NCBI GenBank assembly: GCA_965261345.1
Contig: OZ253449.1
Span: 2,176,001 to 2,240,000 of the forward strand
Source: Chloroflexota bacterium
GTDB taxonomy: Bacteria > Chloroflexota > UBA11872 > VXNJ01
DNA length: 64,000 bases
Direction of reading: 5' to 3'
In this document: positions 1-36,814 of the stretch, one piece after another
Layout: every line of letters starts with the position of its first letter
Numbering within the stretch: the stretch's first letter is position 1
Notes under the pieces: generated by a model
Seen by the model: the letters and a program-made list of their open reading frames with translations, nothing else
What the model was told of the DNA's origin: nothing
Databases searched by the model: none
Translations under genes and position numbers: made by a program

Positions 1-1715
1 TGGCCCACCGCCTTGAGCAGAACCGCCATGTCGGCAAATTCGCCCGTGGTGCGACTGGCAAACGGTTCTAGCAGTTGGAGCCGATCGCTGTCGGGCGCCA
101 CCGCAATCGCAGTCTGACTTCCGTTGGGGGCCAGATATCCGGTACCTCGGGCCAGGAACCCATTGGCCGGCACCTCCGGCGCCGGTTCGGGCGGATTGAG
201 CCGCACCCCGGCGGATCCCGCGATCGGATCGCGGCGCGGATCAAAGCCCAGCCGTCCGCCGATTGCCATGCTCACGGCAATCTCCGGGCTGGTGATGAAA
301 TTCATGGTTTGGGGATTGCCGTCGTTGCGACGGGGAAAATTGCGGTTAAACGAGGTAACGATCGAATTACGGGCTGGGACCGGATTGTGAGGAGCGTCGG
401 GATCGGCCCGCCGCCACTGACCGATGCACGGCCCGCAGGCGTTGGCCAGCACGGTAGCACCGATCGCTTCCAGATCGGCGATAAGTCCGTCGCGCTCCAG
501 GGTGGCACGTACCATCTCCGAACCCGGGGTGACCAGCAGCGGCGTGGCCACCCGGAGATCGGCCGCCTGGGCCTGGCGGGCTACCTGGGCGGCCCGTGAG
601 ATGTCCTCGTAGGAAGAGTTGGTGCAGCTACCAATGAGCACCGCCGACAGTTCCTCCGGAAAGCCTTCGGTGGCAATTTCGCTGGCCAGATCCGAGAGTG
701 GGCGGGCCCGGTCGGGCCGATGGGGGCCAACCACGTGCGGCTCCAGCGCCGAAAGATCGATGTCAATGACCTGGTCGTAGTAGCGATCGGGGTCTGCCGC
801 GGTTTCGGGGTCGGCAGTTAGGAATTCCGAATTGGCCAGCGCCAGATCGGCGGCGACCGAGCGTTCGGTGGACTGCAGATATGTAATCATCCGCCGGTCG
901 AGCGGGAAGACCGAGGTGGTAGCGCCGATTTCGGCCCCCATGTTGGTGATGGTGGCCTTACCGGTGCAGGAAATGGATTCGCAGCCTGGCCCGAAGTACT
1001 CAATGATTCGGTTGGTACCGCCGCTGGTTGTTAGCAGGCCCGCCAATTTCAGGATTACGTCTTTGGGAGCCGACCAGCCGCTGAGCGATCCGCTCAGTCG
1101 CACCCCCAGGATCGATGGCGCGAGCAGCTCCCATGGAAAGCCCACCATCACGTCTACGGCGTCGGCGCCGCCGACTCCGATTGCCAGAGTGCCAAGCCCG
1201 CCGGCATTGGGTGTGTGCGAATCGGTACCAATGATCAGCGATCCAGGGACCGCGTAGTTTTCCAGCACTACCTGGTGAATGATCCCAGAACCCGGTTCCC
1301 AGAATCCCAGCCCCCACTGGGCCGACGCCGAGCGCAGGAATGTGAAAACCTCGTCATTTTCAAGCCGGGAACGGGCCAGGTCGGGCGTGGCGCCGATCTG
1401 GGCCCGAATCAGGTGGTCGCAGTGCACGGTAGTTGGGACCTGGGTACGCGCCTGCCCGGCAAGACGGAACTGCAGCAGGGCCATCTGGCCGGTTACGTCC
1501 TGGAGCGCCACCCGATCGGGCCGCAGCATGATCCAGGCTCCCGGTTCCAGCTCGATTGTCTCCGGGTCGTCGGCGTGCGCCCAGAGGATCTTCTCGGCCA
1601 GGGTCAAGGGTCGTCCCGCCCGCCGCCGGATTGTATCGAGGCGCCCGGTCAGCCGACCGTACATTGCCGAAAGGGCCTCGGGGTCGGCACCGGTTTGATT
1701 CATCGCCGCAGACAT
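1..1715 (-). CDS. acn: Aconitate hydratase (mitochondrial-type aconitase); 3' end runs off the window start
   Basis: Not in the ORF track; read by hand on the minus strand from ATG at 1715 (alternative 1703): MSAAMNQ...RPLTLAEKILWAH...LRPDRVALQDVTGQMALLQF...TTVHCDHLI...GTDSHTPNAGGLG...GSCTNSSYED. These are aconitase signatures. Confidence 0.93.
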   Translation of the reverse strand, partial: MSAAMNQTGADPEALSAMYGRLTGRLDTIRRRAGRPLTLAEKILWAHADDPETIELEPGAWIMLRPDRVALQDVTGQMALLQFRLAGQARTQVPTTVHCDHLIRAQIGATPDLARSRLENDEVFTFLRSASAQWGLGFWEPGSGIIHQVVLENYAVPGSLIIGTDSHTPNAGGLGTLAIGVGGADAVDVMVGFPWELLAPSILGVRLSGSLSGWSAPKDVILKLAGLLTTSGGTNRIIEYFGPGCESISCTGKATITNMGAEIGATTSVFPLDRRMITYLQSTERSVAADLALANSEFLTADPETAADPDRYYDQVIDIDLSALEPHVVGPHRPDRARPLSDLASEIATEGFPEELSAVLIGSCTNSSYEDISRAAQVARQAQAADLRVATPLLVTPGSEMVRATLERDGLIADLEAIGATVLANACGPCIGQWRRADPDAPHNPVPARNSIVTSFNRNFPRRNDGNPQTMNFITSPEIAVSMAIGGRLGFDPRRDPIAGSAGVRLNPPEPAPEVPANGFLARGTGYLAPNGSQTAIAVAPDSDRLQLLEPFASRTTGEFADMAVLLKAVG

Positions 1716-1874
1716 TTTTGGATCGACATCTTTGTACTGATTAGTCCTCAGCGGATTCTAGATTCAACCGGGAATCGAGTCGACTGAGCCCGGCCGGGCG
1801 GGCGAGCTATCGATCCGACGGCGATAATAGACCGCCTGCCGCAAATCCCTCTTTACCGGGCCTCGCCAACCTCC

Positions 1875-3026
1875 TTGAAGCTGCACGAATACCAGTCCCG
1901 CGACCTGCTCGCCGGTCAGGCCATACCGCTGCCGCCGGCTCGATTGGTCGTAGACCCGGCCGGCGCGGCCGAGGCTGCCGCTGAGCTGGGCGGCCGGGTG
2001 GTGATAAAGGCCCAGGTCCTTTCGGGCGGTCGCGGCAAGGCCGGCGGGATCAAATTGGTTGGCGATCCAGCGGCTGCGGCCCGGTCTGCCGGCAACATCC
2101 TGGGGCGCACGATCGGGGGCCACCTGGTGCAAAAGGTTCTGGTGGCCAAGGCCGTCGATATCGCGGCCGAATATTACCTGGCGGTGCTGCCGGATCGCCG
2201 GTCGCGAAAACTGGTGGTTATGGCCTCGGCGGCTGGCGGCATCGACATCGAACTGACAGCGGCCGAAAACCCGGCGGCGATTCATCGCCGCCGCTGCCCG
2301 GCCGACGGCCAATTGGAGCCGTACCAAGGCCGCGAATTGGCGTTTGATCTCGGATTGCCCAAGGCGCTGGTGGGCCAGTTCGCCCAGATTGCCGCGTCAT
2401 TGGTCAAGTGCCTGCAAATCAACGACGCCTCGCTGGTCGAGGTCAACCCGTTGGTAATTAGCGGCGACCAACTGCTGGCGATCGATGCCAAGATCAGCAT
2501 CGACGATTCGGCACTCTTCCGCCAGCCGGGCATGGGCGCGCTGCGCAATCCGGAGGAAGAATCCGAATCGGAGGCGTTGGCCCGCGAGGCTGGAATCTCC
2601 TATGTGGAGTTGGATGGATCGCTGGGATGCATGGTCAACGGGGCCGGATTGGCGATGGCCTTGCTCGACGTAATAGTGGCTGAAGGCGGCCGCCCGGCGA
2701 ATTTCCTCGACATAGGTGGCGGAGCGGATGCCGACCAGGTTGCCCGGGCCATGCGGATCATCCTTTCCGACCCTTCGGTCCGAGCGGTGCTGGTCAATAT
2801 CTTCGGCGGAATTACCCGCTGCGACGACGTGGCCCGCGGCATCACCGCGGCCCTGGCTGAGATCGACAAGCCGCCGCCGCTAATTTCCCGCCTGGCGGGC
2901 ACCAATCAGGCGGAAGGGCTAGCGATCCTGCGGCAAGCTGGCATCAGCGCCCACCGTGACATGCTCGCGGCCGTGCGGGCGGCGGTGGCCCTGGCCCAGG
3001 GGCCGGCTGAGCGATGCACAACCTGA
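1875..3026 (+). CDS. sucC: Succinyl-CoA synthetase beta subunit
   Basis: MKLHEYQ start, KAQV..GGRGKAGG, EVNPL, NGAGLAMA, NFLDIGGGA, NIFGGITRCD. Confidence 0.97.
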   Translation: MKLHEYQSRDLLAGQAIPLPPARLVVDPAGAAEAAAELGGRVVIKAQVLSGGRGKAGGIKLVGDPAAAARSAGNILGRTIGGHLVQKVLVAKAVDIAAEYYLAVLPDRRSRKLVVMASAAGGIDIELTAAENPAAIHRRRCPADGQLEPYQGRELAFDLGLPKALVGQFAQIAASLVKCLQINDASLVEVNPLVISGDQLLAIDAKISIDDSALFRQPGMGALRNPEEESESEALAREAGISYVELDGSLGCMVNGAGLAMALLDVIVAEGGRPANFLDIGGGADADQVARAMRIILSDPSVRAVLVNIFGGITRCDDVARGITAALAEIDKPPPLISRLAGTNQAEGLAILRQAGISAHRDMLAAVRAAVALAQGPAERCTT

Positions 3027-3883
3027 TGATCGATGCCTCCACCCCGGTCCTGGTACAGGGCATCAGCGGCCGCCAGGGGTCATTCCACACCAGGTTAATG
3101 CTCGAGTACGGCACTTCGGTGGTGGCCGGGGTGGTGCCCGGTCGTGGTGGTCAACGGGTTCACGGGGTCGAGGTTTTCGACACTGTAAACCAGGCAGTTG
3201 AGGCCAGTGGAGCAAGCGCCGGGGTGGTCTTCGTGCCCCCATTTGCGGCGGCCGATGCGGTGTGCGAACAGGCCGCCTCCGGAATAAAGACGATCGTTAC
3301 GATCACCGAGGGAATTCCGGTTCTGGATGCGGCCCGGATGATCAATTTTGCCAATCGCCGCGGCGCCCGCGTTATCGGACCCAATTGCCCGGGGTTGATA
3401 CTGCCGGGCCAGACCAAATTGGGCATCATCCCTGGATCGATCGCCCGTCCCGGCCGGGTCGGAATCGTCTCGCGATCGGGAACGCTCACCTATGAGGTGA
3501 TCCAAGCGCTCACCGATCGCGGGATCGGGCAGGCGCTCTGCCTGGGAATCGGCGGTGACCCGCTGATCGGCTTTACATTCGTGGACGCGCTCGCCGAATT
3601 TGAGGGCGATCCGGGCACCGATGCGATTGTGTTGATCGGCGAAATTGGCGGTCAAGACGAAGAAATCGCCGCCGCCTACATCCGCGAAAAAGTGTCCAAG
3701 CCGGTGGTCGGGTTCATCGCCGGACGCTCTGCCCCGCCCGAACGGCAAATGGGTCACGCCGGCGCCATCGTGGCCGGGGGAATGGGTGCGGCGGTCGATA
3801 AGATCGCGGCGCTGCAGGCCGTCGATGTGCCGGTGGCCCAGCACCCCGAACAAGTGGGCGACCTGGTCGCTACCCGGCTTTGA
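3014..3883 (+). CDS. sucD: Succinyl-CoA synthetase alpha subunit
   Basis: GPNCPG, SRSGTLTYE, GIGGD, IGEIGG, phospho-His motif MGHAGA; overlaps sucC. Confidence 0.97.
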   Translation: MHNLMIDASTPVLVQGISGRQGSFHTRLMLEYGTSVVAGVVPGRGGQRVHGVEVFDTVNQAVEASGASAGVVFVPPFAAADAVCEQAASGIKTIVTITEGIPVLDAARMINFANRRGARVIGPNCPGLILPGQTKLGIIPGSIARPGRVGIVSRSGTLTYEVIQALTDRGIGQALCLGIGGDPLIGFTFVDALAEFEGDPGTDAIVLIGEIGGQDEEIAAAYIREKVSKPVVGFIAGRSAPPERQMGHAGAIVAGGMGAAVDKIAALQAVDVPVAQHPEQVGDLVATRL

Positions 3884-4005
3884 AGCAGGCGATGGCAAAC
3901 TGCCCCGCGCGCTCGTTATGATCATTGGGGTGGGATCGATAGCCGCCAACGGCGTTCTGGATCCCGCTTCGTTCATTCGGGCAATCCCGGTTCAAGGCCC
4001 TGTCT

Positions 4006-5571
4006 TTGATTGAATACGAACTGGTTGTGGTGGGCGGCGGGATCGCCGGTCTCAGGGCCGCCATCGCCGCTGCCGAGGCCGACCTGCGGGTGGCGGTCAT
4101 TTCGCGCACCAACCCAATTGCCCATCAAGACGCAAATCTTCGTGAAGGGTTCAACGCGCCCGACGGCGACCGGCTCAAGAACGCTTTTGCAGCCGATTGT
4201 GTGGCTGCCGGTTGCGGCCTGGCCGATCCCTCAGCGATCGCGGCGGCCGCCGACCGGGCGGTCGGCGAGGCGATTGCGGTCGAACACATGGGGGCGACAT
4301 TTGCCCGATCCGCCGATGGCGGCCTGGACGCCTTTCGCCTGGCCGGCAACTCGGCTGCCTACAGCTTGCAGGCCGGTTGGTGGTCCGGTCGAGCGGTGCA
4401 GAACGCGCTAATCGATCAGGCCGCAGCGTATGCGATTGACATATTTAGCGAATGGCTCGCTCTCGCGGTTGTAACCGACGATGCCGGAGTCTGCGGCCTG
4501 ACCGCGCTCAATATCCGCTCCGGTCAGGTCCAGGCGTTTAGCGCTGGAAACGTCCTGCTCACTGAAGGATCGGTCGGCGGCATCTTCACGACCAGCGGCA
4601 ATCCGCGCTGCGCTATCGGCAGTGGCCAGGCCTTAGCCGCTGCCGTCGGGGCGCCGTTGGTCGATATGGAATTCGTCGAATATTGCGCCGGCCTAAATTC
4701 AACTTCGCCATCAATGAACGGGGCGCTGATAGGCGATGCCGCCACTGTCGCCGCGGCGGCATACACCGGATTGCGCTCCCAACCTGATCCAGCTACTCCG
4801 GGAGGCCTGGCCCGCGCGCTTGATCCGGGCGGATCGACCCGAATCGACTTTTCCGGCAACCGCGAGGAGATTGAGCTGTTCGCCGGCGAAATCGGTCTTT
4901 TGCTCGGATCCGAGCTGTCCACCGAGGTCATTCCATCGGTTGCCTACTGCGTCGGCGGGATTGCTCCCGATACCGCCATCGACGGGCTGTGGGCTGCCGG
5001 CGAGGCGGCCGTCTCGCCGTTGCTGGGAGCGGGTCTGCTCGCGGGCAATACCCTGCTCGACCTCGTTCAGTCTGCCACTGCGGCGGTGATGCAAATTACC
5101 CGGCGGTCAGGCGGGGTGCCCGCGTCGCTGCGCCTAAAAACCCAGGAAGAGATTCAACTCACCTTCAGCGGCGATCGCCAGATCGACACCGCCGTCCTCT
5201 GGGATCGCCTGCGCGCGGTAATGACCCAGTCGGCCGGCCTGGCCCGCGAACGTGATGGCCTTGAGCGTGCCCGCGGCCAGATAGATGAGATTGCCGCACT
5301 TGCGGCGCGGTCCGCACCGGCATTTCCGGGCGCACATTTCAACCTCGAGTTGGTGCGCCTATTGGAGTTGCGCCAAGGGCTGGTTACCGCGGCCGCCATC
5401 GTAGCCGGATCGAGCGCCCGGTTGGAGTCGCGTGGCCCACATCAGCGAGTCGATTTCCCGGGACAATCTGTTGATTTTGATGACCATACTGTTCTGCGCC
5501 GCGGCGATGCTGGTTTCAATGTGCAACGCGAGCTGCGGGTAGGCCGATCGCCGGCCGGAGTTGCCCGATGA
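4006..5571 (+). CDS. SdhA/FrdA-like flavoprotein with a degenerate active site (probable pseudo-enzyme)
   Basis: Retains the GGGIAG Rossmann motif, DMEF, GLWAAGE, GNTLLD and ESRGPH..DFP. The covalent-FAD His and the catalytic His/Arg/Glu positions are substituted. Confidence 0.85.
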   Translation: MIEYELVVVGGGIAGLRAAIAAAEADLRVAVISRTNPIAHQDANLREGFNAPDGDRLKNAFAADCVAAGCGLADPSAIAAAADRAVGEAIAVEHMGATFARSADGGLDAFRLAGNSAAYSLQAGWWSGRAVQNALIDQAAAYAIDIFSEWLALAVVTDDAGVCGLTALNIRSGQVQAFSAGNVLLTEGSVGGIFTTSGNPRCAIGSGQALAAAVGAPLVDMEFVEYCAGLNSTSPSMNGALIGDAATVAAAAYTGLRSQPDPATPGGLARALDPGGSTRIDFSGNREEIELFAGEIGLLLGSELSTEVIPSVAYCVGGIAPDTAIDGLWAAGEAAVSPLLGAGLLAGNTLLDLVQSATAAVMQITRRSGGVPASLRLKTQEEIQLTFSGDRQIDTAVLWDRLRAVMTQSAGLARERDGLERARGQIDEIAALAARSAPAFPGAHFNLELVRLLELRQGLVTAAAIVAGSSARLESRGPHQRVDFPGQSVDFDDHTVLRRGDAGFNVQRELRVGRSPAGVAR

Positions 5572-6281
5572 TCGCGCAGCTGCACGTGAATGTTGCGCGC
5601 TACGATCCCGAAGTTGACCGGACGGTGCGCTGGCAAACGTTCCAGGTGCGGCACGAAGCGGGAATGATGGTTCAGGATGCGTTGATCCAGATTCGCGACG
5701 AGCAGGATGGGTCACTGCGTTTTCGCGAAGCCGAAGCGGGCGGATTCTCGGGCCTCGGCGCGGTCGCCTTGAACGGGCGTCCGGTGCTGGCAGTTCGCGA
5801 GGAACTTCCGTCAGATAACCGCGAAATCAGAATCGGCCCGCTCCCTAATCATGGAGTGATCGTCGACCTGGTGGTCGACCTAGAAGTCGGCGACCACCGC
5901 GCGGTGAGCCTTCGTCCCTGGTTGCAGCGGGTCAGCGGCGTTTCCGATGGGCACCCGTCGGCGATGACGCGTGAACAGCTGGACCGACTGCAGCGCAGCC
6001 AATTCTGCAACCGGTGCGGAATCTGTGATGGCGCCCTTCGTTCGACTGGTCCAGATTTTGTGGGTGCTGCGTTCCTGCTAAAGACCTATCGGCTGACGGC
6101 CGACGTGCGAGACGACTTCGACCGCGAGCGAATGATATTGGCGGTCGGCAAAAACGGGCTCTGGCGTGTGGATTCCTCACAATTGGCCGGAGACTGTTGC
6201 CCCTACGGCCTTGAACCATTTGCGCAGATTGATAAGCTCCGCCGCGCTGCCGCGTTAAACGGGTTCACCGACCCGGGCTAG
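5568..6281 (+). CDS. SdhB/FrdB-like iron-sulfur subunit, degenerate (only the 4Fe-4S ligands remain)
   Basis: SdhB scaffold (RYDPE, DALIQIR..QDGSL.FR, PLP....IVDLVVD, CNRCGIC, CCP); ATGA overlap with the upstream flavoprotein. Confidence 0.85.
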   Translation: MIAQLHVNVARYDPEVDRTVRWQTFQVRHEAGMMVQDALIQIRDEQDGSLRFREAEAGGFSGLGAVALNGRPVLAVREELPSDNREIRIGPLPNHGVIVDLVVDLEVGDHRAVSLRPWLQRVSGVSDGHPSAMTREQLDRLQRSQFCNRCGICDGALRSTGPDFVGAAFLLKTYRLTADVRDDFDRERMILAVGKNGLWRVDSSQLAGDCCPYGLEPFAQIDKLRRAAALNGFTDPG

Positions 6282-6344
6282 TCAATTTGGGCAATCCGGG
6301 TTCGTTGGTCTCTCATCCGACCCCCGCGCAAGATTGGAACCCCC

Positions 6345-7271
6345 ATGCGACCGAAAGTTACCGTTGTAGGCGCCGGTGCCACCGGCGGCTCCACCGCCCG
6401 GCGGGTTGCCGAGCGCGGCTACGCCGACGTGGTGCTAGTTGACATTGTGGCCGGGCTGCCACAGGGCAAAACCCTGGATCTCAACCATGCCGGGTCGCTG
6501 GGCGGGTATCCGCCCAACATCGTCGGCACCAATTCCTACGATCCCTCCGCCGGGTCCGACGTCTGCGTTATCACCTCGGGATTCCCACGCAAACCGGGCA
6601 TGAGCCGCGACGACCTGCTCCTTGCCAATAAAGCGATCGTCGAGCAGGTTACCACCGAGCTGGTGAGCCGATCCCCGGAAACGATCCTGGTCATCCTTTC
6701 CAACCCGATGGATGCCATGGCACAGCTGGCAATGCAGGTATCGGGACTTCCGCGCGAGCGCGTAATTGGGCAGGGTGGAATCTTAGATTCATCGCGCTAC
6801 CGGACCTTCCTGGCATGGGAACTGGGGGTGTCCCCGGCCGACATTACCGGGTTTGTCCTGGGAGGGCACGGCGACACGATGGTCCCGGTACCAAGCTATA
6901 CGACTGTGGCCGGTATGTCGGTTAAAGAGTTGATCGCGCCCGACCGGCTTGCGGCAATAGTTGATCGGACTCGCAACGGCGGCGGCGAGATCGTGGGCCT
7001 GATGAAAACGGGCGGGGCGTTCGAGGCTCCGGGCGAGGCCTGCGCGATGATGGTCGATGCGATCTTGCTCGATCAGAAGCGCCTCTACCCCTGTGCGGTA
7101 ATGCTCGACGGCCAGTACGGGATCGACGGTACGTTCGTCGGGGTTCTGGTCAAACTTGGCGCCGCCGGCGTCGAGCAGATCATGGACTTTCCGTTGAGCC
7201 AATCGGAGTTGGCCGAGCTGCAGCGATCGGCGGCATCGGTCGGCGAATTAGTGGAAATAATGGGAATTTAG
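6345..7271 (+). CDS. mdh: Malate dehydrogenase (LDH-like type)
   Basis: VVGAGATG, PRKPGMSRDDLL, SNPMD, LDSSR, LGGHGD. Confidence 0.96.
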   Translation: MRPKVTVVGAGATGGSTARRVAERGYADVVLVDIVAGLPQGKTLDLNHAGSLGGYPPNIVGTNSYDPSAGSDVCVITSGFPRKPGMSRDDLLLANKAIVEQVTTELVSRSPETILVILSNPMDAMAQLAMQVSGLPRERVIGQGGILDSSRYRTFLAWELGVSPADITGFVLGGHGDTMVPVPSYTTVAGMSVKELIAPDRLAAIVDRTRNGGGEIVGLMKTGGAFEAPGEACAMMVDAILLDQKRLYPCAVMLDGQYGIDGTFVGVLVKLGAAGVEQIMDFPLSQSELAELQRSAASVGELVEIMGI

Positions 7272-7713
7272 GCGCCCGATCAAGGCATGTGCCGAAAGCA
7301 TTGCAATTGGCTTTGGCGTCACCCAATCGAATTTGGTTCGACTTCTTTCGCTGAAATTTAAGCGGAAACGATTGGCTCCAGTTCTCTTCCGTTGATTCTT
7401 GACGAGGAAGGAAATATTCCGGTAGGAGTTGGCATCACTGTCACTTTGGTGCTGCTCCAGCGCAGGCGCCCAGATCAGGCGCCGGCAGCTCGCAAAACCC
7501 AAAAAGCTCCCGATCAACTGGGTCCGGCGCTAGGTTGATTGCCGCCTAGGGAGCGCCGATCGTTCTATCGAGGCCCGGCGACGGCGTCAGTCCAACTGCC
7601 CAGCGAATCCGTAGGTTAAGCGTTATTGCGTCGCCCTCAACCTGGTGATCATTCCCGATTAAATCTGGCCGCGCAGCGACTATTGATAAGTCCGGGACCC
7701 GAGCGCGGGGCGG

Positions 7714-9666
7714 TCAATGTGGAGTGTCGGTTTTAAAGCTCGCTGAATGGCGTCTATCCCACGCCAGCGCGCCCAGCCATCCCGCCAGCGCAACTGCCGC
7801 CAACGAACCGGCAACCCACCGGACACTGCCCACGAGATCTCCCGCCAAATCCTGAACCGCTCGCAGGACATAGTCCGCGGTCAACTGGCTCGTACCGGCG
7901 AACGGTCCGTCGGCGAGGTCGATCATTCCTTCCCGGGCCGCGGAAAATCCGGCCGCGGAGGCGGCTTCAAAGACCGGCCAGAGAAGAATTGTGAGCGTCA
8001 ACGCCGCAATGAACAAAACCGCTGATGCCCACGCAATCCTGCCGGGCCAGCTAACGCCACCTAATAACCCGATTACAACCAACATGCCCAGCGCCACCAG
8101 ATACGAAATCCACCCGTACTGGCGCACGGCCCTGGACGCATCGCCCAATGCCTGCAGCCCTGTCCCTATCGAATCCTTAGAAGCTTCGTCCTCCAAACTT
8201 CCAATCGAAAAGACATAACCGTCGGCAAAAAACGTACGGATGTCGTCAAAATCGGCCAGGTTTCCGCCCGCCGCGAGATCTTCCCGAAGATCTGTTTGGT
8301 CATATGAATACCCTTCGGCCAACAGCCGGCGCCATTCGTCCAAGGCTTTGAGCGCCCCTGGGCCGCCAGCGCTATTTACCACGTCCCGCAGGTGAGATTC
8401 CGAAAACACGACCGAGTCCGGAAGTGGGTCAAGGACCAGGGTCTGAACCAGGCTGGCGGTCCGGGCCGTAACCGAGTCCAGGAGCTGGCTTCTCAGGATT
8501 CCGGGAGGAAGGCAGGCGGGAAGGTCGGGATTTTCCAGCGTTAAGGTCAATTCGCCAAGATCGGGCCCGGATTCACAGTCGGGGAGGGAATTTACAACCG
8601 CTGTGACCTTTTGGTCGGCCAGTCCGGTCAGGCCCAACTGCGCCGCCTGTTTGTTGGGTTCAATCGAAATTTGGGTTGTGAAGCCATCCGACCGTCCCAG
8701 GAGATAGTCGCTGGCGTCCTCGATGAAAATTTCGGCTTGTCGATCGACCAGATCCGGCGGCGCGAACTCGAGCAGCGCGTCGGTGATTTCAGCGCTGGTT
8801 ATTACCTGTCCAAACGGAACCTCCACTCCGACACCCAGGATTGGCTCGATCGCTGGCGCAATAACGTATTGGCTCAGCAGGTCGATGGCGGCGTCGCCGC
8901 CCAGGATCGCCTTGAACTCGGCTGCGGTGGCATCCGTCAGCTCTTCGGTAATGCGGATCTGCACCTCGAAGCCGTCGGAATCGGCGATTAGATACGACGA
9001 AACCTGCCGCACGGAATGCTCGGTCAATCCCGCAATCCATTCAGGGGTGATCACCCGAACCGCGGACTCGGCCAACCGCTCGCTCGCGACCGCATTTCCC
9101 CCGAAGGAAAGGGTCGCAATGTTCGACGCCTCCGTGGAGCTGGCAAACGATTCAATCAATCGGTCGCGAACCAACGGGCGAATTTCGTTTCGGAGAAGCC
9201 ATTCATAAGTGCCCGCCTCACGCAGGAGCTCCAACGACCCGTCGACCATGCCCCGCACCGGCTCAGTGGCGTTGATCCGAATCGCCACCTGATCCTGTTC
9301 CCCGGCAATGATTTGACCGATCGCCAGCGCAATCGGCGCAACGATCGCCTCCAACTTTTGCGGCGAGAGGCCAAGATGCACGGCCTCCAAGATCTGTCGG
9401 TTCGTTAACCCGGATTCGGCAAGAACATTCCGTCGAACATCCACGCCAAGTTCGGCTGGATCGGCAGCACGCACGTCGTTGAGGACCGACGCCAACAAAT
9501 CAACCACCAGAAATTGATAAACACCGCGTTTTTCGAGCTGCTGCGGATAGAAGCTTGGCTTTAGAAATGTGTCGTTTAGTCCGAACACGAAAAGCGCAAC
9601 CATCAGGGTGGGAAGAAGGATCGTCCCCCCAAGGGCAGCTATGGAGCGACGGAATAGCAGCATCAC
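7714..9666 (-). CDS. Hypothetical integral membrane protein with a large extracytoplasmic domain
   Basis: 650-aa ORF with an N-terminal hydrophobic helix, a long acidic/helical region and about three C-terminal TM segments. Confidence 0.75.
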   Translation of the reverse strand: MMLLFRRSIAALGGTILLPTLMVALFVFGLNDTFLKPSFYPQQLEKRGVYQFLVVDLLASVLNDVRAADPAELGVDVRRNVLAESGLTNRQILEAVHLGLSPQKLEAIVAPIALAIGQIIAGEQDQVAIRINATEPVRGMVDGSLELLREAGTYEWLLRNEIRPLVRDRLIESFASSTEASNIATLSFGGNAVASERLAESAVRVITPEWIAGLTEHSVRQVSSYLIADSDGFEVQIRITEELTDATAAEFKAILGGDAAIDLLSQYVIAPAIEPILGVGVEVPFGQVITSAEITDALLEFAPPDLVDRQAEIFIEDASDYLLGRSDGFTTQISIEPNKQAAQLGLTGLADQKVTAVVNSLPDCESGPDLGELTLTLENPDLPACLPPGILRSQLLDSVTARTASLVQTLVLDPLPDSVVFSESHLRDVVNSAGGPGALKALDEWRRLLAEGYSYDQTDLREDLAAGGNLADFDDIRTFFADGYVFSIGSLEDEASKDSIGTGLQALGDASRAVRQYGWISYLVALGMLVVIGLLGGVSWPGRIAWASAVLFIAALTLTILLWPVFEAASAAGFSAAREGMIDLADGPFAGTSQLTADYVLRAVQDLAGDLVGSVRWVAGSLAAVALAGWLGALAWDRRHSASFKTDTPH

Positions 9667-10613: not shown

Positions 10614-11375
10614 CTAACGCCTGCCGCGAAATACCCGGCCAAGCAATCGCTGTAACGGATCATAGGCCTCATCGGCGACTCGTTCTTTGAGCGGGATTAT
10701 CGCGTTGTCGGTGATCTTAATCCCTTCCGGGCAGATGTCGGTGCAGCATTTGGTTATGTTGCAAAACCCCAACCCGTGGACTCGCTGCAACTCGTCGCGC
10801 CGATCGAGCGTGTCAAGTGGATGCATCTCGAGGGCGGCCGCATAGACCAACAGACGCGGCCCCACGAATTCTTCGTGCAAAGCGCTCGAACGAAGTACGT
10901 GGCATACGTCCTGACAGAGAAAGCACTCAATGCATTTCCTAAATTCCTGGACCCGGTCAATATCGCCCTGCTCCATGCGCCAACCGCCGGCGGCCTGTTC
11001 CTCGGTGGTCTGCGAGCGCGGTTCAAATTTGCGAATCGACTGTTTGGCGCGGTAATTCCAACTGACATCGGCGACCAGGTCGGTAAGGACCGGAAAGGCC
11101 TTCAGTGGAGTAACGTAGATTGGCGCTTCGATGTCCAGTTCGTGGAAACCGGTCATGCAGGCCAGCCGCGGGCGGCCGTTGATCTCCATCGAACAGGATC
11201 CGCATTTGCCGGCCTTGCAGTTCCAGCGACAGGCCAGCGAGGGGTCGGCGTTGGCCTGTATCCAATGCAGGGCGTCGAGGACCACCGTCCCCTCTTCGAG
11301 CGGCACCTGGAAATCCTCGAATCGGGTTTGACCGGCATCGCCGCGCTGGACCCGGAGGGTTGCTTGCTCAGACAT
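10614..11375 (-). CDS. sdhB: Succinate dehydrogenase/fumarate reductase iron-sulfur subunit (Sdh1/Rv0247c-like)
   Basis: CRWNCKAGKCGSC...LAC, CIECFLCQDVCH, CNITKCCTDICP: full Cys complement. Confidence 0.95.
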   Translation of the reverse strand: MSEQATLRVQRGDAGQTRFEDFQVPLEEGTVVLDALHWIQANADPSLACRWNCKAGKCGSCSMEINGRPRLACMTGFHELDIEAPIYVTPLKAFPVLTDLVADVSWNYRAKQSIRKFEPRSQTTEEQAAGGWRMEQGDIDRVQEFRKCIECFLCQDVCHVLRSSALHEEFVGPRLLVYAAALEMHPLDTLDRRDELQRVHGLGFCNITKCCTDICPEGIKITDNAIIPLKERVADEAYDPLQRLLGRVFRGRR

Positions 11376-11379
11376 GGTG

Positions 11380-13182
11380 CTAGGGCCCGTCGATGATGGC
11401 TTGGAGGTCGGCTGGCGGCTTGGGCAACGGTTCGGTGACCACGATCATTTCACCGCGCGAGTCCTGTTTGACGATTACCGACTTCTCGCTCCATTCGGGC
11501 AGGCTCGCGGGATAGTCGTCGCGGGTGTGGCCTCCACGACTTTCTTTGCGTTCCCGGCCGGCCAGCGCGCTGGCCCGGGCCAGGATCAGGACGTTATGAA
11601 AGTCGAGGGCTTGGTGCCAACCCACGTTGAAGGAGGAACCGCTGGGGATCGGCGCCCGGCTGGCCCAGCTGGCATATTGATCCAGTTCGCCGAGGGCCTC
11701 TTCGAGGTCGCTCGCGCGGCGGATTATTCCGACCTTGTTATCCATCATCGCCTGCAGGCTGCCCAGCAAAGCGAATGGGTTCTCCTTGCCGCGGGCTGAA
11801 AAAGGAGCCAACGCGTCGGCCTGGGCGGCGTCGATAGTCGATTGCGCCGGTTTTACCGGGTGCGGATTGGCCAGTGCCGCCCGGGCGGCGTATTCGCCGG
11901 CGCGCTTGCCAAATACCAGCAGATCGGTGAGCGAATTCCCGCCGAGGCGATTGGCGCCATGCATTCCTCCGGCAGCCTCCCCCGCGGCGAAGAGCCCCGG
12001 TATGCTGGCGGCCTGGGATTCGGACTCAACCCGGATCCCGCCCATGATGTAGTGGGCGGTGGGCCCCACCTCCATGGCGGTCTTGGTGATGTCGACCCTG
12101 GCCAGTTCGGAGAACTGGTGGTACATGGATGGAAGACGTGAGCGGATGTCCTGGGCCGATCGTTGCGAGGCAATATCGAGAAACACCCCACCGTGCGGTG
12201 ACCCCTCGCCGGCATCGACCTGGCGCAGGATTGCCCGCGCGACCTCGTCGCGGGTTAGCAGCTCGGGTGGACGACGGGCCTGTTTGTCGCCGGCCAGCCA
12301 ACGCCGGGTCTCGGCTTCGCCGTCGGCATATTCGCCCTGGAACATCTCGGGCACGTTGTCGAACATGAATCGCTGTCCGGATCGATTTCGCAACACCCCG
12401 CCCTCGCCGCGGACCGCTTCGGTGACCAGAATGCCGCGAACCGATGGTGGCCAGACCATGCCGGTCGGGTGGAACTGGATGAATTCCATGTCGATTAGTT
12501 CGGCCCCGGCCTTCCAGGCCAGGGCGTGACCGTCGCCGGTCCCTTCCCAGGAATTGGTGTTGATCGCCCACGCCCGGCAGGCCCCGCCGGTGGCAATTAC
12601 CACTGATTTGGCGGCGATTGCCAGCATTTTGCCGTCGGATCGCTGGTAGGCGAATACCCCGACAACTCCCGACTCCTCAACCAGCAGACTGGTCACCGCG
12701 CATTCCATGTGAACGGAAATTCCCTGGTGGATGCCGTGGTCTTGGAGGGTCCGGATCATCTCCAGGCCGGTGCGATCGCCAACGTGGGCCAGGCGCGGAT
12801 AGCGATGACCGCCGAAATTGCGCTGCAGGATCAGGCCGTCGGGGGTTCGGTCGAACACCGCTCCCCAGGCCTCCAATTCGCGGACCCGCGCGGGGGCCTC
12901 CTGCGCGTGGATCTGGGCCATCCGCCATTGCCCCAGGAGCTTGCCGCCGCGCATCGTATCGCGGAAATGGACTTCCCAGGAATCGCGCGGGTCGGTGTTG
13001 CGCAGAGCCGCGGCCATTCCGCCCTCAGCCATGACCGTGTGGGCCTTGCCAAGCAGCGATTTGCAGATTACCCCGACGCTGGCCCCCTCGGCGCGGGCGG
13101 CGATCGCCGCCCGCAGGCCGGCCCCGCCGGCCCCGACGATCAGGACGTCGTAGGCGAGTTGTTCGGGCGTCGGCGCATTCAT
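11380..13182 (-). CDS. sdhA: Succinate dehydrogenase/fumarate reductase flavoprotein (Sdh1/Rv0248c-like)
   Basis: GAGGAG, KAHTVMAEGG (FAD-His), QFHPTG, TEAVRGEG, LLTRDEV, HYIMGG, HGANRLGGNSL, ESRGGH. Confidence 0.96.
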   Translation of the reverse strand: MNAPTPEQLAYDVLIVGAGGAGLRAAIAARAEGASVGVICKSLLGKAHTVMAEGGMAAALRNTDPRDSWEVHFRDTMRGGKLLGQWRMAQIHAQEAPARVRELEAWGAVFDRTPDGLILQRNFGGHRYPRLAHVGDRTGLEMIRTLQDHGIHQGISVHMECAVTSLLVEESGVVGVFAYQRSDGKMLAIAAKSVVIATGGACRAWAINTNSWEGTGDGHALAWKAGAELIDMEFIQFHPTGMVWPPSVRGILVTEAVRGEGGVLRNRSGQRFMFDNVPEMFQGEYADGEAETRRWLAGDKQARRPPELLTRDEVARAILRQVDAGEGSPHGGVFLDIASQRSAQDIRSRLPSMYHQFSELARVDITKTAMEVGPTAHYIMGGIRVESESQAASIPGLFAAGEAAGGMHGANRLGGNSLTDLLVFGKRAGEYAARAALANPHPVKPAQSTIDAAQADALAPFSARGKENPFALLGSLQAMMDNKVGIIRRASDLEEALGELDQYASWASRAPIPSGSSFNVGWHQALDFHNVLILARASALAGRERKESRGGHTRDDYPASLPEWSEKSVIVKQDSRGEMIVVTEPLPKPPADLQAIIDGP

Positions 13183-13961
13183 GCCGCGATCAAGATCAAG
13201 CGCGGGTCGATGACGGTCTCGGTGGCCACCAGGCGGACGTAGACATCGACCAGAGCGACCCAGATGAGCGAGAACCAGGCCCAGTTGCCGTGGCGCAGGT
13301 TAAAGAATGTCGCGATTTTCCAGAGTCGACCGCGGGTTCGATTCACCAGTGAACAGGAGAAGCAATCGACCCGCCCACCGACCAGGTGGCGGAGCGAGTG
13401 GCATCCCAGTACGTAGCCGCCCAGCGAGACCGCATTAACGACCATGAGCACCGTGCCCAGTCCCACTCCGAAGCCCTCGCTAAAGAAGAAGGCCAGTATT
13501 GCGTCGTAGACGAAGATCACCACCAGGGCCAGCGCGAATGGCAGGGCATAGCGGTGCAGGTTCTGCCAAATCAGCAGTCGGCGCTCGCCCGAATAAGGAA
13601 GGTTGAGGCGGCCGACCGCGCAAGCCGGCGGCGAAAGGAAGTAGGAGCGGTAGTAGGACCGGCGGTAGTAGTAGCAGGTGATGCGAAAGGACAGCGGGGC
13701 CCAGAGGATTAGCAGGGCCGGCGTGCGCAGCCATCCAGGCCACCAATCGGGCCAGACAAACCCGGAAAAATGAGGTGAATAAAAGGGTGATAAATAGGGC
13801 TCGGCGACGTGATGTTCGTTTTGGGCACCCTGCAATATGACCCAACCCGAATAGAGGATGAACGCGCCAAAAATAAGACCGAAACGCAACGGTTCGACCC
13901 ACCATCGGTCAACCCGCAGGGTCTGCCCAAGGCGCGCGTTGGCGGCCGGTATGCTAGCCAT
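13179..13961 (-). CDS. Succinate dehydrogenase single membrane anchor (Rv0249c-like)
   Basis: Multi-TM protein with TLR.DRWW, SPFYSP, FRITCYYYRRSYY, N.HRY, GCHSLRHLVGG; overlaps the sdhA start; alternative start GTG at 14000. Confidence 0.88.
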   Translation of the reverse strand: MASIPAANARLGQTLRVDRWWVEPLRFGLIFGAFILYSGWVILQGAQNEHHVAEPYLSPFYSPHFSGFVWPDWWPGWLRTPALLILWAPLSFRITCYYYRRSYYRSYFLSPPACAVGRLNLPYSGERRLLIWQNLHRYALPFALALVVIFVYDAILAFFFSEGFGVGLGTVLMVVNAVSLGGYVLGCHSLRHLVGGRVDCFSCSLVNRTRGRLWKIATFFNLRHGNWAWFSLIWVALVDVYVRLVATETVIDPRLILIAA

Positions 13962-14081
13962 GGCGGAAATGCCCCACCTATCGCCTGGGAACGAATGCAC
14001 GAAATCTCCACTTAGGATAGTTTGTGCGGGCTTCCAGATTGGCCGCCGCCGCCCGGCACGGATAAGAAAATTGGGCTACCG

Positions 14082-36455: not shown

Positions 36456-36727
36456 GCTACATAGTTTTCGGCAAATGCACCGCTTCGGTCACCACCGAGA
36501 CGCTAACCGAAGGTACCCCTCAGATCAGCAAGATTTGCCGATCGCGTGGCGGGAACGTAATCGATGCCTATTTGACCCTGGGCTCCGTCGACATCGTGCT
36601 GGTGCTTGAATTTCCCAGCAACGAGGCCTGCGTCGCCGCAATGGTCGAGTACGGCCAACTGGGCCTGTTAACGACCCAGACGATGCCGGCGTTCCCTGTG
36701 AGCAGCGCGGCCGACCTGATCGGATAG
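36449..36727 (+). CDS. GYD-domain protein, separated from its native RBS by the IS
   Basis: 92 aa; GG..I..Y.TLG.VD.V.V.EFP...T.T..AF pattern of the GYD family. Confidence 0.8.
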   Translation: MQRYIVFGKCTASVTTETLTEGTPQISKICRSRGGNVIDAYLTLGSVDIVLVLEFPSNEACVAAMVEYGQLGLLTTQTMPAFPVSSAADLIG

Positions 36728-36814
36728 GCAATGGCGGCCTGAGCTTTCCGGGCTCAATCCCGCCGATTGGTCGGTTCCAGCGCGGCGCCGGCCGGCAATG
36801 ATGCGAACCGGGCC

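Follow-up and report, generated by a model that had tools for sequence, protein, structure and literature searches.

A conserved, degenerate SdhAB-like gene pair in a tricarboxylic acid cycle operon of Chloroflexota retains the ligand set of a single [4Fe-4S] cluster

Introduction

The iron-sulfur subunit of succinate dehydrogenase (SDH) and fumarate reductase, SdhB or FrdB, is the textbook example of a three-cluster wire. Its canonical [2Fe-2S] loop has the form R-S-C-R-x-G-x-C-G-S-C ... L-A-C; in the E. coli proteins the [4Fe-4S] cluster is bound by a CxxCxxC motif (motif 1) together with the second Cys-Pro cysteine, and the [3Fe-4S] cluster by the first Cys-Pro cysteine together with the first two cysteines of motif 2. 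The [2Fe-2S] cluster is held by four cysteines, or by three and an aspartate, and types with a second [4Fe-4S] cluster have a fourth cysteine at the distal site. Here we describe a pair of adjacent genes, encoding an SdhA/FrdA-like flavoprotein (SdhA') and an SdhB/FrdB homolog (SdhB'), in a window of 64,000 nucleotides (G000:C1:2176001-2240000) from the single-contig, 2.39-Mb genome of a Chloroflexota bacterium. SdhB' shares with canonical SdhB/FrdB (1kf6_B, 1nek_B) the two-domain fold, the TIGR00384 family, the [4Fe-4S] motif, the gene position right after the flavoprotein gene and the same predicted A-B interface. Unlike them, it has neither [2Fe-2S] nor [3Fe-4S] ligands, and the positions of the quinone-site Trp and His are unconserved; the pair as a whole further differs from canonical complex II in having no anchor gene in its operon and a flavoprotein partner that is predicted to be dead.

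A described pair that also departs from the canonical plan is sdhAB-1 (Sfum_0172-0174) of Syntrophobacter fumaroxidans, to which the genome paper (PMC3570798) attributes no membrane subunit and incomplete cluster motifs, and which it calls 'not a conventional Sdh or Frd'. The same paper says that its SdhA retains the catalytic residues and that a 4Fe-4S motif is likewise absent. In our alignment, contrary to the latter statement, all four [4Fe-4S] cysteines are present in P0151, the representative whose cluster (90%) contains the S. fumaroxidans SdhB. The product was undetected in a proteome study (PMC5947623). SdhAB-1 resembles SdhA'B' in being soluble and, judged by P0151, in having no [3Fe-4S] ligands and in grouping with the Chloroflexota forms (88/92, a support that is not starred); it differs in keeping the [2Fe-2S] ligands and, according to PMC3570798, the catalytic residues of SdhA.

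No paper on an SdhB with the [4Fe-4S] site alone was found in a literature search that covered listings and abstracts, with subscription journals outside its coverage, and the ESM Atlas contained generic Frd/Sdh iron-sulfur clusters only. What appears to be new here is a conserved, degenerate A'B' pair as part of a stepwise series of cluster loss.

Results

Cluster ligands of SdhB'

The initial annotation of this locus, made by a model from the DNA alone, had proposed an SdhB homolog that keeps the [4Fe-4S] ligands and loses those of both other clusters. The family membership was borne out by profile and structural comparison. SdhB' scores 137.4 bits against TIGR00384 (dhsB; cut-off 88), and its AlphaFold2 (AF2) model (mean predicted local distance difference test score, pLDDT, 92; predicted template modelling score, pTM, 0.87) was matched by Foldseek to E. 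coli FrdB (1kf6_B) with a template modelling score (TM) of 0.89 and a root-mean-square deviation of 2.1 Å over 233 columns, showing the two-domain SdhB fold. All 10 of the more specific NCBIfam models of SdhB/FrdB scored below their cut-offs with SdhB', and the sole Pfam match was Fer2_3 (63.5 bits), without any Fer4 family, in contrast to the genuine SdhB that is encoded in the same window.

The motifs were placed by phmmer alignments to solved SdhB chains and by MAFFT alignments to homologs. At the canonical [2Fe-2S] loop SdhB' reads FREAEAGGFSGLGAVALNGRPVLAV, with E56, S61, G64 and V76 at the ligand positions, so that no cysteine is left for the proximal cluster. Motif 1 (C147-N-R-C150-G-I-C153-D-G-A-L157) retains CxxCxxC and has its fourth Cys-Pro replaced by L157-R, while in motif 2 (W-R-V-D-S-S-Q-L-A-G-D-C-C211-P212) the first two cysteines are replaced by V and A and the terminal Cys-Pro is retained. 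All three regions had been read in this way in the initial annotation. The [3Fe-4S] ligand positions are thus occupied by L, V and A, leaving the distal cluster without a ligand, and all of the medial [4Fe-4S] ligands (C147, C150, C153 and C211-P212) are present; given the E. coli assignment of cysteines to clusters, it is exactly the [4Fe-4S] set that survives. In the DNA the four cysteines are encoded by TGC (6006-6008), TGC (6015-6017), TGT (6024-6026) and TGC (6198-6200), the last followed by CCC (6201-6203). The cysteine preceding C211 (C210) is confined to close kin of the SdhB' of the window. By motif and predicted fold, the CxxCxxC and the distant Cys-Pro form a ferredoxin-type site in a folded ferredoxin-like helix pair, and from this we infer that the four cysteines would still bind a [4Fe-4S] cluster. 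The positions aligned to the Trp and His of the SdhB quinone site are not conserved.

Conservation of the four cysteines and selection on the pair

A word-indexed search returned ten clusters of proteins of 236-237 aa (46-95% identity) with Fer2_3 as the only domain, and 1.84 billion representatives, searched exhaustively with HMMER, yielded 1404 proteins at E <= 0.001, three of them at E <= 1e-30. Cluster members and loci were pooled into 57 distinct sequences, of which 38 are full-length one-cluster forms. The four [4Fe-4S] cysteines and the proline after the fourth are found in 38 out of 38 of these, across two genera and at identities that fall to 46-49%. At the ligand positions of either other cluster no member has more than one cysteine: for the [2Fe-2S] cluster 32 members are without any and six carry a single one, the corresponding numbers for the [3Fe-4S] cluster are 35 and three, and in 23 of the 38 the four cysteines are the only ones in the entire protein. 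G151 and D154 are invariant in the family, as is the proline after C211. When the alignment was widened to 110 sequences of the SdhB superfamily, the only invariant columns were D100, L101, C147, C150, C153 and C211. The Cys-free loop at the former [2Fe-2S] site is itself well conserved, with 14 invariant positions among residues 50-77 (11 sequences).

Were seven of the 11 ligands lost at random, this exact surviving four would be expected in 1 out of 330 cases by arithmetic. The suspicion voiced in the initial annotation, that such a loss is unlikely to be random, is upheld by this figure together with the 38 out of 38, and the alignment of homologs that it proposed as a check came out in its favour.

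The reading frame is intact in all 38 one-cluster sequences. The ratio of nonsynonymous to synonymous substitution rates (dN/dS; Nei-Gojobori) was estimated from the three pairs with the least saturation (dS 0.36-0.51), giving 0.09 for SdhB' and 0.14-0.16 for SdhA'. In the same three pairs mdh stands at 0.06-0.08 and the genuine sdhB at 0.08-0.11, and sucD has 0.13 in the one available pair (L002-L004, dS 0.56). Purifying selection is strong on both genes, that on SdhB' being comparable to mdh and the genuine sdhB, and the four-cysteine pattern is the product of neither chance nor decay.

The flavoprotein partner

SdhA' scores 205.7 bits against TIGR01812, far below the cut-off of 567.3. It was aligned to E. 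coli FrdA and relatives, and residues were counted over 15 genus-level sequences; residue numbers are those of FrdA, in which His232, Thr244, Glu245, Arg287, His355 and Arg390 are the dicarboxylate-binding and catalytic residues. At these six positions the SdhA' of the window has C, G, D, no aligned residue, A and L, respectively, and the position of the histidine that binds FAD (flavin adenine dinucleotide) covalently is occupied by Gln. Nothing aligns to Arg287 because the capping domain has lost ~60 residues. Over the genus, His232, Thr244-Glu245, Arg287 and Arg390 are retained in 0 out of 15 sequences (position 390 being Leu in all of them) and His355 in 13 out of 15. The former active-site residues vary between species of the genus, with C, L, V, I or A in place of His232 and A or H at His355. 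SdhA' therefore does not have the dicarboxylate-binding and catalytic residues of the flavoprotein of a functional complex II, and it is predicted to be catalytically dead toward succinate and fumarate.

The Rossmann GxGxxG is intact in 14 out of 15 sequences, and GLxAAGE and ESRGxHxR persist; the flavin motif ATGG has become T-E/D-G in 14 sequences and A-E-G in one, and AEGG reads REG or RDG. Since the catalytic residues are gone from the flavoprotein partner, the whole of SdhA'B' would be a dead paralog rather than a crippled respiratory enzyme. The broken electron wire from FAD to quinone that the initial annotation described thus stands, as far as sequence can tell, with a further break at its very source.

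Predicted A-B complex

The AF2 model of SdhA' (pLDDT 91.4) resembles complex II flavoproteins (Foldseek TMq 0.86-0.90). The SdhA'-SdhB' complex was modelled with FAD and one [4Fe-4S] cluster included, in three runs and with three controls. The interface score ipSAE (interaction prediction score from aligned errors) reached 0.94 in three out of three runs versus 0.00 for the best of the three controls; in a benchmark of the mark used for this score, it was attained by 58 out of 80 solved complexes and by 2 out of 110 mismatched pairs. At least 89% of contacts were common to the runs, with a partner pLDDT of at least 83. The modelled interface brings residues 54-63 and 76-77 of SdhB' into contact with residues 197-203 and 229-241 of SdhA', and the location of the Cys-free former [2Fe-2S] loop at this predicted interface fits the high conservation of the loop. 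The models predict a canonical A-B heterodimer.

Distribution and a two-cluster sister form

Family-profile matches were surveyed across 41 genomes of the order. Matches at E <= 1e-100 are confined to genus g1, that of the window (G000, G002-G006), and genus g2 (G007), with G001 represented by a fragment at a contig end; matches at E ~1e-60 to 1e-64 come from genera g3 and g4 (G008, G009, G011, G013, G015, G017), and genus g5 and a second family (f2) have canonical SdhB only. In g5 the genes run sucCD-mdh-sdhA-sdhB; the enzyme they encode is canonical, and a second pair is absent. A metagenome scan covering 18 loci recovered the one-cluster form in two (L038, L039), both of the already known g2 type. 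The remaining 16 retain every [2Fe-2S] cysteine, along with those [4Fe-4S] and [3Fe-4S] cysteines that their sequence contains (three complete sets in 10, Ala at the last [3Fe-4S] position in four, and two fragments).

The g3/g4 proteins represent a two-cluster form (P0041; L021-L026) that shares with SdhA'B' the sucCD-A-B-mdh position, the loss of the [3Fe-4S] ligands and the retention of the [4Fe-4S] cysteines. Unlike SdhB', their SdhB is longer (~252 aa; 252-253 aa in individual proteins) and has all four [2Fe-2S] cysteines, this pattern being found in 16 out of 16 full-length sequences. Unlike SdhA', their SdhA retains Thr-Glu, Arg287 and His355, having lost the covalent His, His232 and Arg390; and unlike in the window, fumC is added after mdh. 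The two-cluster SdhA''B'' pair occupies ~6300-8750 of each of the loci L021-L026. In its SdhA, His232 is replaced by Asn and Arg390 by Pro or Ser, and the pair may act as a soluble oxidoreductase whose substrate binding has changed.

In a tree built by maximum likelihood from 56 SdhB sequences, the one-cluster clade and the two-cluster clade are each supported at 100/99 and are joined at 96/92. Other representatives without a [3Fe-4S] site (P0050, P0087, P0151, P0108) join at 88/92, which is not starred, and the resident FrdB-like and Sdh1-type enzymes are placed elsewhere. The simplest history would be a soluble two-cluster SdhAB-like lineage whose [2Fe-2S] site and remaining catalytic residues were lost before g1 and g2 diverged. 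Because the sister genera keep [2Fe-2S] and [4Fe-4S], the clusters appear to have been lost stepwise, cluster by cluster, so that the surviving set would mark the single cluster still selected.

Further SdhB proteins with the [2Fe-2S] and [4Fe-4S] cysteines kept and the [3Fe-4S] set absent (P0050, P0075, P0087, P0108, P0151, P0186) look unrelated to one another, and in NCBIfam the other 3Fe-4S-less representatives pass the generic TIGR00384 alone. A group of flavoproteins of ~540 aa (P0203-P0208) has no covalent His, with His232, His355 and Arg390 in 6 out of 6 and Arg287 in 5 out of 6; these may be the partners of such SdhB representatives.

Locus layout and the resident succinate dehydrogenase

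The features of the locus are collected in Table 1. The 237-aa frame of SdhB' runs from the ATG at 5568 to the TAG at 6279-6281; the TGA stop of SdhA' and this ATG overlap as ATGA, and the two genes are predicted to be translationally coupled. The order acn-sucCD-A'-B'-mdh is kept in 6 out of 6 related loci (L001-L006) and is also found in L021, L022, L024 and L025, the two-cluster loci with open reading frame (ORF) lists, while sucC-sucD lie upstream throughout L001-L006 and L020-L026 (L006 and L020 being one and the same place in G007). No membrane-anchor gene is present within the sucCD-A'-B'-mdh unit, the only one nearby being that of the genuine sdhCAB. In a promoter and terminator scan of window positions 1600-7800, sites were no commoner than in shuffled sequences, and no terminator was seen between sucD and mdh except for a weak match within SdhA'. 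Overall, SdhA'B' is a pair that is degenerate in its entirety yet conserved, within a sucCD-mdh tricarboxylic acid (TCA) cycle operon of one Chloroflexota lineage.

Table 1. Genes and motifs of the SdhA'B' locus (window coordinates, nt)
Feature	Position	Strand	Remarks
Aconitase (acn)	3-1715	minus	ORF and family scan of the window
sucC	1875-3026	+	Succinyl-CoA synthetase; sucC-sucD span 1875..3883, upstream of and co-directional with SdhA'
sucD	3014-3883	+	Succinyl-CoA synthetase
SdhA'	4006..5571	+	521-aa degenerate SdhA/FrdA-like flavoprotein
SdhB'	5568..6281	+	237-aa SdhB/FrdB homolog bearing the [4Fe-4S] ligand set only
Former [2Fe-2S] loop of SdhB'	5721..5795	+	Residues 52-76, Cys-free; alignments
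Motif 1 of SdhB'	6006..6026	+	C147-x2-C150-x2-C153, supplying three [4Fe-4S] ligands out of four; alignments
C211-P212 of SdhB'	6198..6203	+	Fourth [4Fe-4S] ligand and Pro; alignments
mdh (malate dehydrogenase)	6345..7271	+	Pfam Ldh_1_N and Ldh_1_C; 63 nt 3' of SdhB'
Membrane protein, predicted	7714-9666	minus	650 aa; no family match
Genuine Sdh1-type sdhC-sdhA-sdhB	10614..14000	minus	All 11 Fe-S ligands and flavoprotein motifs intact

A genuine sdhCAB lies ~4 kb from SdhB'. Its SdhB scores 371.5 bits against NF009052 (cut-off 256), its SdhA 897.5 bits against NF005866 (cut-off 819), and its 273-aa anchor matches 7d6v_C, the membrane subunit of Mycobacterium smegmatis Sdh1, at E 1.6e-46. As a complete Sdh1-type SDH is encoded nearby, SdhA'B' is an extra pair and not the SDH of the cell. 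A recent duplication of the resident enzyme was considered as its source and rejected, since the tree sets the pair apart from both Sdh1-type and FrdB-like residents; the replacement of a missing fumarase was rejected as well, the genome having a fumC at 569451-570839 that is 72% identical to the L021 gene.

The resident SDH of genus g1 is of the mycobacterial Sdh1 type, and the remaining genera in this family and order have an FrdB-like enzyme (SdhB 247-258 aa); the resident SDH seems to have been replaced in g1 at the same site downstream of mdh. The 650-aa protein without a Pfam match separates mdh from the genuine sdhB in G000 only, mdh being followed directly by sdhB in L002-L005, the genus-level loci with a readable layout. 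A third SdhA-family gene of G000 lies outside the window (G000:C1:1791747-1793225), is 27-32% identical to the others (tblastn) and is probably an L-aspartate oxidase (nadB). Elsewhere in the window, ARAGORN called an 80-nt tRNA-Gly(tcc) at 36717-36796 (+) that the Rfam tRNA model did not report at its gathering score, and which could be either an unusual tRNA or a spurious prediction.

Discussion

We lean, with slightly more confidence than doubt, toward the view that SdhA'B' is a selected, soluble pseudoenzyme pair, non-catalytic with respect to succinate and fumarate, with a role linked to the TCA cycle and an electronically isolated, probably structural [4Fe-4S] cluster. The isolation would follow from the absence of both the [2Fe-2S] relay and the [3Fe-4S]/quinone end: a relay step spans ~10-12 Å, and from the flavin pocket to the [4Fe-4S] cluster the distance amounts to about two steps, which is past useful tunnelling, so that along the old path the cluster would be beyond electron exchange with the flavin site. 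As a structural cofactor it would tie together two helices of the C-terminal domain of SdhB', and the fact that this helical domain forms around it may be why it has persisted; the N-terminal loop, by contrast, would have been re-stabilised without its cluster. A single Cys4 cubane that takes no part in an electron-transfer chain and is regarded as holding an element of the fold in place is familiar from enzymes of the endonuclease III/MutY type, although their fold and function are unrelated and the likeness is one of analogy only. The role of the pair could be tied to the TCA cycle as that of, for example, a scaffold or a regulator.

Several observations weigh against this interpretation. 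If the cluster were no more than a staple, a substitute could have evolved, as happened with the E/S/G/V loop of the former [2Fe-2S] site, and the strict retention may hint that the cluster itself acts, e.g. in sensing or redox chemistry. With GxGxxG (14 out of 15) and the GE motif of SdhA' intact, a flavin-dependent activity on some other substrate would be possible. The high score of the modelled complex may reflect a memory of complex II structures, which have been solved many times, and hence likeness rather than binding. Finally, genus g5 of the same family is without the pair altogether, which makes it dispensable there.

The first of the alternatives, that the isolated [4Fe-4S] cluster is a sensor whose oxidation, loss or iron-dependent assembly alters SdhA'B' and thereby modulates TCA enzymes or their expression, is to our mind unlikely but deserves consideration. 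Labile clusters are used in this manner by aconitase/IRP1 and by FNR. The cluster site is the sole one strictly retained, with the others swapped for cluster-free loops; the pair is housed in a TCA operon, with aconitase, sucCD and mdh close by, and it is under strong purifying selection though its catalytic residues are all gone. On the other hand, family scans found no DNA-binding, RNA-binding or signalling domain in SdhA' or SdhB', the medial cluster of canonical SdhB is buried and stable, and g5 manages without the pair. There is a slim chance that a complex II module was turned into a pseudoenzyme whose only surviving cofactor senses iron, oxygen or redox state and tunes the TCA cycle from inside a TCA operon. 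If true, this would be a bacterial counterpart of the transition from aconitase to IRP1, with a three-, two- and one-cluster series in living genera.

We give marginally less credence to a redox enzyme of new chemistry, acting on another substrate at the FAD of SdhA' or accepting electrons from an external ferredoxin-like donor at the old anchor site. The persistence of GxGxxG, GLxAAGE and ESRGxHxR in SdhA' would suit such an enzyme, and the two-cluster sister keeps Thr-Glu, Arg287 and His355 together with a ligand path from FAD through [2Fe-2S] to [4Fe-4S], for which reason the lineage probably once was a soluble redox enzyme. Anchorless SdhAB pairs without a [3Fe-4S] cluster do exist, e.g. 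the S. fumaroxidans SdhAB-1 as described in PMC3570798. However, the old active-site positions (His232 and His355) vary within the genus, which is unexpected for a conserved new active site, the flavin motifs are altered in the manner given above, and the capping domain is short by ~60 residues. Without the [2Fe-2S] cluster, moreover, the flavin and the [4Fe-4S] cluster would be two relay steps apart, at ~10-12 Å per step.

That the four cysteines hold zinc or another metal, or form a conserved structural knot, with no Fe-S cluster at all, we regard as doubtful and a shade less probable again. Cys4 sites are able to bind zinc; the spacing of a CxxCxxC and a distant Cys-Pro is nevertheless the signature of a ferredoxin-type [4Fe-4S] site, and the proline, G151 and D154 are as invariant as the ligands. 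The ligands of a cubane are wider apart than those of zinc, and the remodelling that zinc would require is not suggested by the model, which is confident at the site and superposes on FrdB. The last alternative, a relic in random decay, made redundant by the complete SDH 4 kb away, is extremely improbable and already contradicted, since, despite the many functional residues gone from both subunits, the frames are intact in 38 out of 38, dN/dS is low for both genes, both fold models are confident, and two genera whose proteins are 46-49% identical share the form and its four cysteines.

In public records (P0312 and kin) SdhB' and its one-cluster relatives appear as '2Fe-2S iron-sulfur cluster-binding protein' or as 'hypothetical protein', while SdhA' goes under 'FAD-binding protein'. 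The '2Fe-2S' label refers to the one cluster that SdhB' cannot bind, all [2Fe-2S] ligands being gone, and metabolic reconstructions could miscount the pair as a second SDH.

The textbook three-cluster wire of SdhB is here dismantled from both ends, with the middle site alone kept, under selection on par with that on housekeeping neighbours and next to a flavoprotein as thoroughly stripped. If the cluster is bound, SdhB' would be a natural experiment on the part that the medial cluster plays in the SdhB fold beyond electron transfer, as well as a clean system for the spectroscopy of one SdhB cluster without the other two. The three-, two- and one-cluster series in related genera illustrates a path from a respiratory enzyme to something else.

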